From the NCBI GenBank assembly GCA_037130655.1, contig JBAXSP010000001.1, positions 37,641 through 101,640 of the forward strand: a DNA stretch of 64,000 nt. The letters are read 5' to 3'. Of this stretch, positions 49,813 to 50,823 are shown in pieces; within the stretch, counting starts at the first letter, position 1; every line of letters starts with the position of its first letter. This stretch comes from a bacterium (GTDB lineage: Bacteria; Patescibacteriota; Minisyncoccia; Phycocordibacterales; UBA9973). The notes beneath the pieces are model-generated. The model was not told the origin of the DNA and made no database searches. It worked only from the letters and a program-made list of their open reading frames with translations. The translations under genes were made by a program, and so were the position numbers.

Positions 49813-49860
49813 AAAATGGCAAGTTTCTAGTTTCTAGTGACTAGGTTCTAGTAGAGAACA

Positions 49861-50226
49861 TTAGTTACGTGGTTCTAGTTTATTAATAATAGCACGAAGC
49901 ATCTTACTTATTTCAGTGAGTAATTCGAGTTCTTTTTCGACAGAAATATTATACAAATCTTTACATAAACAAAGTTGGGTTTCTAATTCAGAAGTAGAAC
50001 CATATGCAATATGTATAAACTGACAATAATCTTTCCTTGTTTTTCTACTACTACCTTCTGCAATATTAGAAACGATAGAAATAGATGATCGGCGCATTTG
50101 TGACTGTAATGCAAAGACTTCCGATTGCGGTAATTTTGAAGAAACTTTATAGACAGATTTCACTAGTTCGTATCCTTTCTGCCAAACAATCAAATCTTTA
50201 TATGATTTTATTTTGATATCAGACAT
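49861..50226 (-). CDS. four-helix-bundle protein (23S rRNA intervening-sequence protein / Avd-like family), paralog 1
   Basis: DLIVWQKGYELV...RSSISIVSNIAEGSSRKTRKDYCQFIHIAYGSTSELETQL matches the 4HB/23S-IVS (PF05635-type) pattern. Flanked by inverted heptamer arms at 49824-49854 and 50241-50269. Confidence 0.8.
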   Translation of the reverse strand: MSDIKIKSYKDLIVWQKGYELVKSVYKVSSKLPQSEVFALQSQMRRSSISIVSNIAEGSSRKTRKDYCQFIHIAYGSTSELETQLCLCKDLYNISVEKELELLTEISKMLRAIINKLEPRN

Positions 50227-50268
50227 TACTTGTGATTTTACTAGTCACTAGAAACTAGCTACTAGAAC

Positions 50269-50823
50269 CTAAACCGTCATTACTTCAACTTTCTTTTTTT
50301 CAAACAAAGCTTCTAGTTCTGCATTTGATGCATCAACCAATTTTTGTAGTTCATCTTGTCCGCGGAATTTTTCATCTTCGGTAAGGATGCCTTCTTTTTC
50401 TTGATCACGAATATCATTTTGTACTTCTTCGCGAGCCTTACGTACAGAGATACGAGCATCTTCCATTTTGTCTTTCAAAATCTTGACCAACTTTTCACGA
50501 TTTTCAGTTGTCAGCATCGGGAAGATTGCACGAATACCATCACTATCAGCAACGATAGATAGTCCGATGTCAGCAATTTGTAATGCTTTTTCGATATCTT
50601 TGACTTGATTTTTGTCCCACGGAGCAATACGAAGTGTGCGAGGGTCTTCGATGTTGACTGAAGCTACGTTTTTGATTGGTGACAATGCACCATATGCTTC
50701 AACCATAACACCATCTAGAATTGATGGAGTTGCACGCCCAGTATGCAAAGAGCTGTATTCTTTTGCGAGCCATTCGCTAATCTTTTTTGTTTCTTCTTTG
50801 AATTGTGAAAAATTGTATGCCAT
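50269..50823 (-). CDS. frr: ribosome recycling factor
   Basis: 184 aa with conserved RRF motifs (RTGRA..SILD.V.VE.YG, R.AREE). Confidence 0.9.
   Translation of the reverse strand: MAYNFSQFKEETKKISEWLAKEYSSLHTGRATPSILDGVMVEAYGALSPIKNVASVNIEDPRTLRIAPWDKNQVKDIEKALQIADIGLSIVADSDGIRAIFPMLTTENREKLVKILKDKMEDARISVRKAREEVQNDIRDQEKEGILTEDEKFRGQDELQKLVDASNAELEALFEKKKVEVMTV

Follow-up and report, generated by a model that had tools for sequence, protein, structure and literature searches.

Inverted heptanucleotide arms around four-helix-bundle genes in bacterial operons: a probable relative of the rRNA intervening sequence between protein-coding genes

The PF05635 family of four-helix-bundle (4HB) proteins has been without a function since its discovery in intervening sequences (IVSs) of rRNA in the early 1990s, and heptanucleotide repeats between bacterial genes have been noted for decades with no mechanism for their origin, spread or use. 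Both occur together in a 64,000-nucleotide stretch of a Patescibacteriota genome (contig JBAXSP010000001.1, positions 37,641 to 101,640; hereafter the window, the 64 kb of this genome that were analysed), where a 4HB gene lies between frr and an rseP-like gene and is enclosed by inverted arrays of seven-nucleotide units. What is such a gene, with such arms, doing inside a housekeeping operon? We consider it on balance probable that it is a selfish gene cassette of the IVS type which lives in operon spacers instead of 23S rRNA, and whose arms pair and loop out the insert. The parts of this first cassette and its surroundings are:

48685-48717: strong terminator hairpin after rseP
48733..49812, minus strand: rseP-like M50/PDZ protease gene (Pfam scan), the downstream host gene
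49822..49853, minus strand: 3′ arm of cassette 1, CTAGAAC CTAGTCA CTAGAAA CTAGAAA
49861-50226, minus strand: 4HB gene 1, 121 aa, PF05635/TIGR02436
50239..50270, minus strand: 5′ arm of cassette 1, in minus-strand sense GGTTTAG GTTCTAG TAGCTAG TTTCTAG TGACTAG
50269..50823, minus strand: frr (ribosome recycling factor, PF01765), the upstream host gene

The arms occupy both spacers (42 + 48 nt) between gene 1 and frr or rseP. The strings that an earlier note on this DNA had quoted as arms are found at 49824-49854 and 50241-50269, and a direct sequence check bears out its claim of an exactly reverse-complementary 18-nt core, formed by CTAGTTTCTAGTGACTAG (49827-49844) and CTAGTCACTAGAAACTAG (50241-50258). 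The right arm was also said to overlap the frr stop, and indeed this TAG (50269-50271) supplies the last letters of the first, degenerate heptamer of the 5′ arm. At the other end the C-terminus of the 4HB protein, KLEPRN, is encoded by a degenerate copy of the 3′ array, and the distance from the end of the 3′ arm to the rseP ATG is 12 nt. The core and the outer GGTTCTAGTAG/CTACTAGAACC pair are not nestable in one hairpin, because the arm halves are mutually circularly permuted. The string CTAGNNNCTAGNNNCTAG, with three CTAG motifs at 7-nt spacing, occurs six times in the window and in none of 100 shuffles, and CTAGNNNCTAG, with two spaced CTAGs, occurs 11 times compared with 0.12 expected from shuffles.

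The protein itself is a clear member of its family. The gene 1 product is matched by PF05635 (E=1.4e-34) and exceeds the TIGR02436 cutoff, and the three proteins of this kind encoded in the window score 119, 122 and 142 bits with PF05635 (cutoff 33.8) and 112-137 bits with TIGR02436 (cutoff 24). An AlphaFold2 model of the gene 1 product, built from a 38-sequence alignment and calculated as a monomer, is a confident four-helix bundle (pLDDT 94.8), for which the best structural match is XCC0516 (PDB 2GSC; TM score 0.85-0.88, 34% identity), followed by BT_0352 (2RLD); both of these relatives have five chains in the PDB. All three window proteins are basic (pI ~9). PADLOC returned no defence-system match for them, and a role as a defence system was rejected on this ground.

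Avd, the accessory protein of diversity-generating retroelements (DGRs), shares the four-helix-bundle fold and the superfamily, and has been described as a basic pentameric barrel that binds structured RNA, the Avd-binding RNA element. The earlier note had placed the window proteins in one family with Avd; of this the distant fold relationship stands, as the Avd structures 4DWL and 8UB7 match the gene 1 model with TM scores of 0.70-0.82 at 10-12% identity, and there are weak matches to PF22296 and to the Avd equivalog hidden Markov model NF033474. Membership does not stand, since NF033474 gives 27.9, 23.1 and 42.8 bits for the three proteins, far below its cutoff of 80. Their genomic packaging also differs from that of Avd, with housekeeping genes as neighbours. 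Pfam scans of 46 window ORFs (open reading frames), including all of those of at least 190 aa, detected no reverse transcriptase domain (RVT), in agreement with the note, and a direct-repeat scan of the window gave no template/variable repeat pair. We therefore rejected the idea that the 4HB genes are Avd accessory genes of a DGR, which is the least credible of the explanations considered here.

If the arms belong to the gene, then its paralogs should be examined for the same arrangement. The window holds two further cassettes:

56993..57016, minus strand: 3′ arm of cassette 2, GACTAAN units in sense
57032..57388, minus strand: 4HB gene 2, 118 aa, between MYG1 (57421-58329) and obg (56007-56981)
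57397..57430, minus strand: 5′ arm of cassette 2, TTAGTCN units, after MYG1
59965..60006, minus strand: 3′ arm of cassette 3
60007..60363, minus strand: 4HB gene 3, 118 aa, with yqeY downstream and a divergent RNase T-like exonuclease gene
60381..60422, minus strand: 5′ arm of cassette 3, TATAG-type units

By tblastn the window has exactly three family members, the number given in the earlier note, with pairwise identities of 42-47% rather than the 35-45% estimated there. Each was said to lie inside an inverted-repeat cassette, and inverted arms do flank all three, although they come from distinct repeat families: NNNCTAG at gene 1, TTAGTCN at gene 2 and the TATAG type at gene 3. The 3′ arm of cassette 2 is complementary to its 5′ arm at 91% of 22 nt, and both mismatches are G.U in the sense RNA. 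Downstream of cassette 3 the mechanically called yqeY ORF (59511-60023, TTG start) overlaps the end of 4HB gene 3. In relatives YqeY is annotated with 147-150 aa and starts ~40-60 nt past the 4HB stop, and the true start is probably an ATG near 59963, just past the 3′ arm.

To measure flank complementarity in 77 non-overlapping window ORFs, we paired the 60 nt that precede each ORF with its 3′ end and the 60 nt that follow, and calculated the energy of the duplex. The 4HB genes rank 1, 2 and 3 (–45.1, –39.9 and –34.2 kcal/mol) in a distribution with a median of –14.1 kcal/mol and a standard deviation of 6.7. Other genes with strong flank complementarity (58387-59022 and 36193-37578) were set aside as chance pairings without arrays. 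Among the tandem arrays of the window, period 7 is enriched over other periods, and all six flanks of the three 4HB genes carry such arrays. Period-7 arrays are present in ~12/76 of the window intergenic regions and are therefore no general feature of gene ends; a borderline match at 43345-43408 proved to be merely A-rich sequence around a terminator. The scenario named in the earlier note as fatal to its proposal, 4HB genes without inverted flanks and arrays at most gene ends, is thus the opposite of what the window contains.

A metagenome scan with the family alignment extended this to 80 diverse loci (39-56% identical to gene 2, GC 29-67%), 64 of them with enough flank. With an array called at ≥15 of 21 period-7 matches, 67% of the 64 loci have one in the flank, compared with 0.8% of 488 control segments; at the same loci periods 5, 6 and 9 give 0-3% and period 8 gives 19%. 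Flank duplex energy lies more than 2.5 standard deviations below local shifted controls at 27/64 loci, and once the window and related loci are included, 49/73 cassettes have clearly complementary arms. The heptamer itself varies from locus to locus, as in (GGGACTA)6/(TAGTCCC)8, CAGGGGT/CCCTGAT and GGTGAGT/ACTCACC. Neighbouring genes are mostly co-oriented with the 4HB gene (50/59 upstream, median gap 62 nt; 46/56 downstream, median gap 52 nt), and none of 69 metagenomic loci lies in rRNA, because all had long flanking ORFs.

Beneath this variation there is a common grammar. The dinucleotide AG is present in the consensus units of 38/41 upstream arrays, and a YAG core (TAG or CAG) in 73% of upstream consensus units as opposed to 30 ± 7% of shuffled units; A and G are also the best conserved positions within arrays (0.94 vs 0.86, p=7e-6). 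Polarity is fixed, with YAG-core units upstream and CTR units downstream: 22 upstream arms are AG-only and one is CT-only, while 26 downstream arms are CT-only and three AG-only, and the 5′ arm has more G than C in 40/49 cases. Well-defined arrays have a median of 4.6 units (interquartile range 3.7-5.4), the 5′ array ending ~21 nt before the 4HB ATG and the 3′ array starting at the stop codon (median –0.5 nt). An exception to the inverted rule is locus L174 (1400-1960), which has CTGT-type arrays in the same orientation on both sides of the 4HB gene, direct and not inverted. At loci L191-L195 the 3′ arm region downstream of the 4HB gene (~1860-2240) consists of ~43-nt tandem blocks containing GCTACCACCTACAACCTAACTCCTA, of which the copy number differs between assemblies and where assembly gaps (Ns) occur; this suggests that arm length is polymorphic.

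These data bear on the simplest alternative, that the arms are generic heptanucleotide repeats, born of slippage or associated with terminators, whose presence at 4HB genes is incidental. Five other intergenic sites of the window do have arrays of these heptamer families with no 4HB gene, and heptanucleotides are the commonest longer simple repeats in many bacteria (reviewed in PMC4679880). However, generic repeats account neither for arrays on all six 4HB flanks when ~12/76 intergenic regions have one, nor for the difference between 67% and 0.8% in 64 unrelated loci, nor for inverted symmetry. We regard this explanation as refuted by the ranks of 1-3 among 77 ORFs, the excess over controls and the fixed polarity, and as very unlikely to be saved.

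The architecture extends to plasmids and to rRNA. Thirty-two plasmid records, mostly cyanobacterial, contain a homologue, and clear heptamer arms are present in Nostoc punctiforme (TCAGGAG), Anabaena sp. 90 (CAGGTGA) and Picosynechococcus PCC 7003 (GGAGATA). Within 50 kb of the N. punctiforme plasmid pNPUN02 there are six period-7 arrays, whereas periods 4-6, 8 and 10 gave no array; the arms of the 4HB gene account for two of the six, a solo array of their heptamer family for a third, and an inverted pair without an ORF for two more. The same plasmid (L202) has at 40402-40431 an array TTAGTCG TTAGTCA TTAGTT, of a heptamer family also found in the Patescibacterial window. The plasmid collection, as distinct from the metagenomic loci, also yielded a true 23S IVS: on replicon p2 of Azospirillum lipoferum 4B the family ORF lies inside large-subunit rRNA (RF02541, 491 bits), and CAGAGGA/CGGAGGA heptamer arms close a ~25-bp stem. 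In Coxiella, three to four GACAGAT heptamers, variable in number between strains, stand just upstream of the S23p start and within the stem of inverted repeats at which RNase III cuts (PMC4990558). The window cassettes and genuine IVSs therefore have their combination of ORF and arms in common, which upholds the likeness to rRNA IVS geometry that the earlier note had drawn. The comparison shows one cassette architecture, across phyla and in the genuine 23S IVS.

If the cassette is an insertion, then the same junction should be found without it. In ~25 related Patescibacteria genomes rseP comes straight after frr, 4-100 nt away, confirming that the unit is inserted between the two as had been proposed. 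In the closest species-level relative, L003, the flanks are 86-88% identical and the alignment breaks off precisely at the frr stop, to start again at the rseP ATG; the junction there (4553-5020) holds an unrelated ~150-aa ORF, Cys-rich and with an N-terminal hydrophobic segment, and no heptamer arms. The frr|rseP junction thus seems to be a hot spot for accessory genes. In L058 (Saccharibacteria) the frr|rseP spacer has at 4568-4671 a pair of inverted heptamer arms without an ORF, GGGTACA/TTTCAGA .. CTGACCC/CTGAGCA, and after it a T-run, that is, a mini-cassette at the junction that holds the 4HB cassette in the window. At greater distance, two relatives with frr identities of 67% and 55% have an orthologue of gene 1 (79% and 64%) with CTAG arms at the same junction.

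Proteins 76-78% identical to gene 1 also occur at three other junctions, greA|aminoacyl-tRNA synthetase, cytochrome-b5-like|efp and ftsE|ftsX, each time co-oriented with the neighbours and each time with CTAG-heptamer arms. Because the same arms accompany the gene at these other places, they belong to the cassette and not to the site. One or two extra small ORFs may lie between the arms, always ahead of the 4HB gene; hydrophobic ones of 69-76 aa stand inside CTAG arms upstream of the 4HB gene at L086 (2261-2470), L175 (1550-2004) and L180 (1790-2008). In gene-1 relatives, too, the C-terminal 4HB codons (KLEP..) form part of the 3′ array, and in 5/6 junctions examined the TAG of the first heptamer is the stop codon of the upstream gene.

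Divergence changes abruptly at the cassette boundary. Against contig L002, holB and frr are 86-87% identical and the arms and 4HB gene 95-98%, the rise beginning at the frr stop, and synonymous divergence (dS) is 0.11 for the 4HB gene (dN = 0) compared with 0.63 for holB and 0.74 for frr. For cassette 3 the comparison is with L181: identity is 91-92% in the flanking genes, 96.4% in the ORF and 100% in both arm regions (0/97 mismatches). These alignments show that the cassette was exchanged recently, that its arms are strongly constrained and that the 4HB protein is under purifying selection. The genome comparisons show a cassette that is gained, lost and exchanged between lineages, with its arms travelling along.

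If the arms were instead DNA-level terminal inverted repeats of a non-autonomous element resembling a miniature inverted-repeat transposable element (MITE), with its enzyme encoded elsewhere, then the 4HB gene would be passenger cargo. Inverted termini, presence/absence polymorphism, several insertion sites, short ORF-less derivatives and variable extra cargo ORFs are what such an element would show. On the other hand, the 46 scanned ORFs include no transposase, integrase or RAYT, no target-site duplication is visible at the junctions compared, and a DNA transposon requires neither the near-constant co-orientation and exact stop-to-start placement, nor fixed arm polarity, nor a constant 4HB cargo under purifying selection. 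We consider this origin of the arms improbable.

The ORF-less derivatives are found in the window itself, where heptamer arrays occur at five places away from the 4HB genes:

1301..1411: ORF-less mini-cassette, TTAGTCA/TAATGAC family, around a terminator hairpin (RNA fold z = –9.8)
4723..4841: ORF-less mini-cassette, CTAG family, with inverted heptamer arms, downstream of ftsZ
17679..17709: solo heptamer array, TTAGTCA family, downstream of ORF 17714-18100
18235..18333: TATAG-family mini-cassette without an ORF, enclosing a terminator hairpin, just after lepA
33493..33533: solo array of minus-strand TAATGAC heptamers

The three mini-cassettes fold into long hairpins around GC-rich terminator hairpins (z = –6 to –9.8), and their arms are homologous to those of the 4HB cassettes beyond the heptamer motif itself. 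One arm of 4723..4841, whose arms enclose a perfect 20-bp terminator hairpin (4758-4800), is 28/31 identical to a cassette 1 arm, and the right arm of 18235..18333 is 37/42 identical to a cassette 3 arm. Derivatives of the cassette, with homologous arms around terminator hairpins and no ORF, are thereby shown to be scattered in the same genome. The solo array at 33493-33533 covers the 20-nt spacer between an oxidoreductase gene (33524-34750) and a methyltransferase gene (32733-33503), with one of its units providing the TAA stop of the former and another the ATG of the latter; the TAATGAC unit holds the stop-start motif TAATG, and a period of 7 places stops and starts in all three frames.

Some further features of the window lie apart from the heptamer arrays. 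Two near-identical (92%) GC-rich terminator hairpins, at 3334-3369 after ftsA and at 5830-5865 after a thioredoxin-reductase-like gene, represent another type of dispersed intergenic repeat, one that has no heptamer arms. At 28343-28572, seven or more tandem copies of a 21-nt (7-aa) unit encode an acidic E/D-rich segment in ORF 28081-28686. A TrwB/TraG-like type IV coupling ATPase gene (37582-39675) adjoins that of a lamin-tail-domain protein (36193-37578); at locus L188 a relative of gene 2 is inserted beside PrgI/TraC-like genes.

How could an insertion of this kind be tolerated in a tightly packed operon? In the proposed unit, some 4-5 YAG-core heptamers would be followed by ~20 nt, the PF05635 ORF (sometimes with one or two small ORFs before it) and ~4-5 complementary CTR heptamers that start at or inside the 4HB stop. 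Such a unit would insert co-directionally and exactly between the stop codon of a housekeeping gene and the start codon of the next and, having no recognisable promoter or terminator of its own, would be read from the host promoter. In the transcript the arms would pair into a long helix that loops out the ORF, which would bring the frr stop near the rseP start and preserve downstream expression. By analogy with the Coxiella IVS, the helix may also offer a double-stranded site for processing of the RNase III type, and pairing together with processing would make the insertion tolerable in rRNA and in tightly packed operons alike.

Several predictions from the RNA agree with this proposal. The earlier note had suggested folding the cassettes to look for a long stem, and in both minimum free energy and centroid folds an arm-arm helix closes each of the three; the whole-cassette folds of cassettes 2 and 3 are unusually stable (z = –3.9 and –4.0). 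There is no excess of promoters or terminators inside cassette 1 and there is a strong terminator after rseP, so that frr-4HB-rseP looks like one transcript.

Other results weigh against an IVS-like cassette held together by its helix. Folded as a whole, cassette 1 has no unusual stability (z = –1.28), and an RNase III motif was not found in the 64-kb window, which is the part of the genome that the search covered. Mismatches in the 49 arm pairs are not significantly biased towards those tolerated in RNA (G.U 60 vs A.C 44, p=0.14), and sense and antisense arm duplexes do not differ consistently in energy. In the CTAG family, swapping the arms leaves the duplexes equally stable (own –35.2 vs swapped –33.8 kcal/mol), with no locus-specific covariation; the CTAG core is invariant, the spacers drift and spacer complementarity is imperfect. 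Roughly one third of the census loci have no clear complementary arms, no target-site duplication is seen at the junctions compared, and no mobilising enzyme was identified. Finally, the 7-nt period, the YAG core, the fixed polarity and the ~five units per arm go beyond what a plain helix accounts for, and these features suggest an additional, sequence-specific reader.

The most parsimonious candidate for such a reader would be the encoded protein. In this alternative the heptamer arrays would primarily bind the 4HB oligomer, as single-stranded RNA or as DNA, with one YAG or CTR core per subunit. The cassette would then carry its own operators, and ORF-less arrays at terminators or before starts would be further targets through which translation, termination or RNA stability could be affected. 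This is compatible with pairing of the arms. It would account for the strict period of 7 (67% of flanks, as opposed to 0-3% at periods 5, 6 and 9), for a YAG core that is conserved across phyla with A and G as its best conserved positions and a polarity fixed relative to the ORF, and for the invariance of the CTAG core while its spacers drift. A median of 4.6 units per arm compares with the five chains of 2GSC and 2RLD, the three window proteins are basic, and Avd, the only characterised relative, is an RNA-binding, positively charged pentameric barrel. Furthermore, each of the three ORF-less heptamer families matches the arms of one resident 4HB gene, and likewise on pNPUN02. However, common descent would equally produce heptamers that cassettes share with ORF-less arrays, YAG could reflect stop codons (a period-7 TAG covers all three frames) or a Shine-Dalgarno-like AGG, and the great variation of heptamers among paralogs would need many specificities. 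We therefore hold primary binding to be a real but distinctly less than even possibility, and its more specific form, that PF05635 pentamers are trans-acting readers of bacterial heptanucleotide repeats with the ~five units of an arm facing five subunits, to be a tentative conjecture. If true, the cassette would be a horizontally spreading protein-plus-operator module that seeds ORF-less arrays at terminators and before starts, STRR, TAACTGA and GGGAATC-type repeats would be explained, and a 30-year-old 'IVS ORF' would gain a function.

On the reading that we favour, an IVS-type cassette in operon spacers, the rRNA IVS is a special case of a widespread cassette that resides mostly between protein-coding genes, as 0/69 metagenomic loci in rRNA indicate. 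The cassette grammar is strict (period 7, YAG core, fixed polarity, ~five units per arm, inverted symmetry), and the cassette moves between genomes, leaves ORF-less derivatives and links a gene family to long-unexplained 7-base repeats. It may also bear on CRISPR loci, for which an association of '23S rRNA IVP' has been reported (PMC10910872). 4HB cassettes with heptamer arms lie inside cas operons, between cas6 and cas4 in L197 (Anabaena sp. 90 pANA02, 401-769) and between cas10/cmr2 and cmr3 in L200 (Picosynechococcus PCC 7003 plasmid, 401-757), and the reported association may reflect cassette insertion and not a CRISPR role. The protein family, the ORF-bearing IVS, its inverted repeats, the Coxiella heptamers and an old proposal of IVS mobility were already known. 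In the literature we found no paper on the operon-embedded cassette, its grammar, its ORF-less derivatives or heptamer arrays at non-rRNA 4HB genes, and Elhai et al. 2008, on small dispersed repeats within Nostoc heptamer arrays, may hold a prior description.

The closest known system is the ORF-containing 23S IVS of Leptospira, Coxiella burnetii, Xanthomonas, Brucella and Azospirillum. Like the window cassettes, it has a homologous PF05635 ORF in sense orientation in the loop of an inverted-repeat helix, YAG-type heptamer arms (Coxiella GACAGAT = CAGATGA; Azospirillum CAGAGGA/CGGAGGA), short ORF-less forms and suspected horizontal mobility. It differs in its host, which is rRNA; the window, where Rfam finds five tRNAs and no rRNA, has its cassettes in mRNA operons (frr-rseP, MYG1-obg and upstream of yqeY). 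The Coxiella ORF is decaying and probably untranslated, whereas the window ORFs are intact and under purifying selection, and RNase III cleavage has been demonstrated for the Coxiella IVS, whereas the window cassettes are known from sequence alone.

Cyanobacterial STRR sequences are intergenic heptanucleotide tandem repeats. Other heptanucleotide repeats have been described as TAACTGA in Beggiatoaceae, Cyanobacteria and Bacteroidetes, upstream of start codons (PMC4679880), and as GGGAATC or GGGGAYT in Xanthomonas and Nostoc (PMC4692102); neither paper mentions the PF05635 family. Like the window arrays they consist of 7-mers repeated in tandem, form short intergenic arrays (2-6 or more units) that often directly precede start codons, and occur in the very taxa that are rich in PF05635 genes. 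The unit TAACTGA is complementary to TCAGTTA, which has a YAG core, and in L158 a 4HB gene is flanked by TCAGTTG/CAACTGA arms. The published repeats are direct and have no linked gene, whereas the window arrays form inverted pairs around a specific ORF or hairpin.

MITEs and REPINs resemble the cassettes as short, dispersed, intergenic inverted repeats with a longer gene-carrying relative, and differ in having a unique terminal inverted repeat in place of heptamer arrays, while the cassettes are strictly co-oriented with host transcription. Integron cassettes are likewise promoterless single-ORF units with imperfect, hairpin-forming inverted repeats and an external promoter. They depend on an integrase and attI and have a GTTRRRY core, whereas 4HB arms stand on both sides of the ORF, as single insertions in housekeeping operons; we rejected an integron, as the 46 window ORFs scanned include no integrase, there is no attI, and GTTCTAG / CTAGAAC do not fit the RYYYAAC / GTTRRRY core. 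TRAP, which reads (G/U)AG triplets, serves as a working analogy for the binding of arrays by the 4HB protein, being a ring-shaped homo-oligomer on purine-containing triplets of fixed period in single-stranded RNA near a start codon. Its fold is unrelated to the 4HB fold, and its period is 5 where that of the 4HB arrays is 7.

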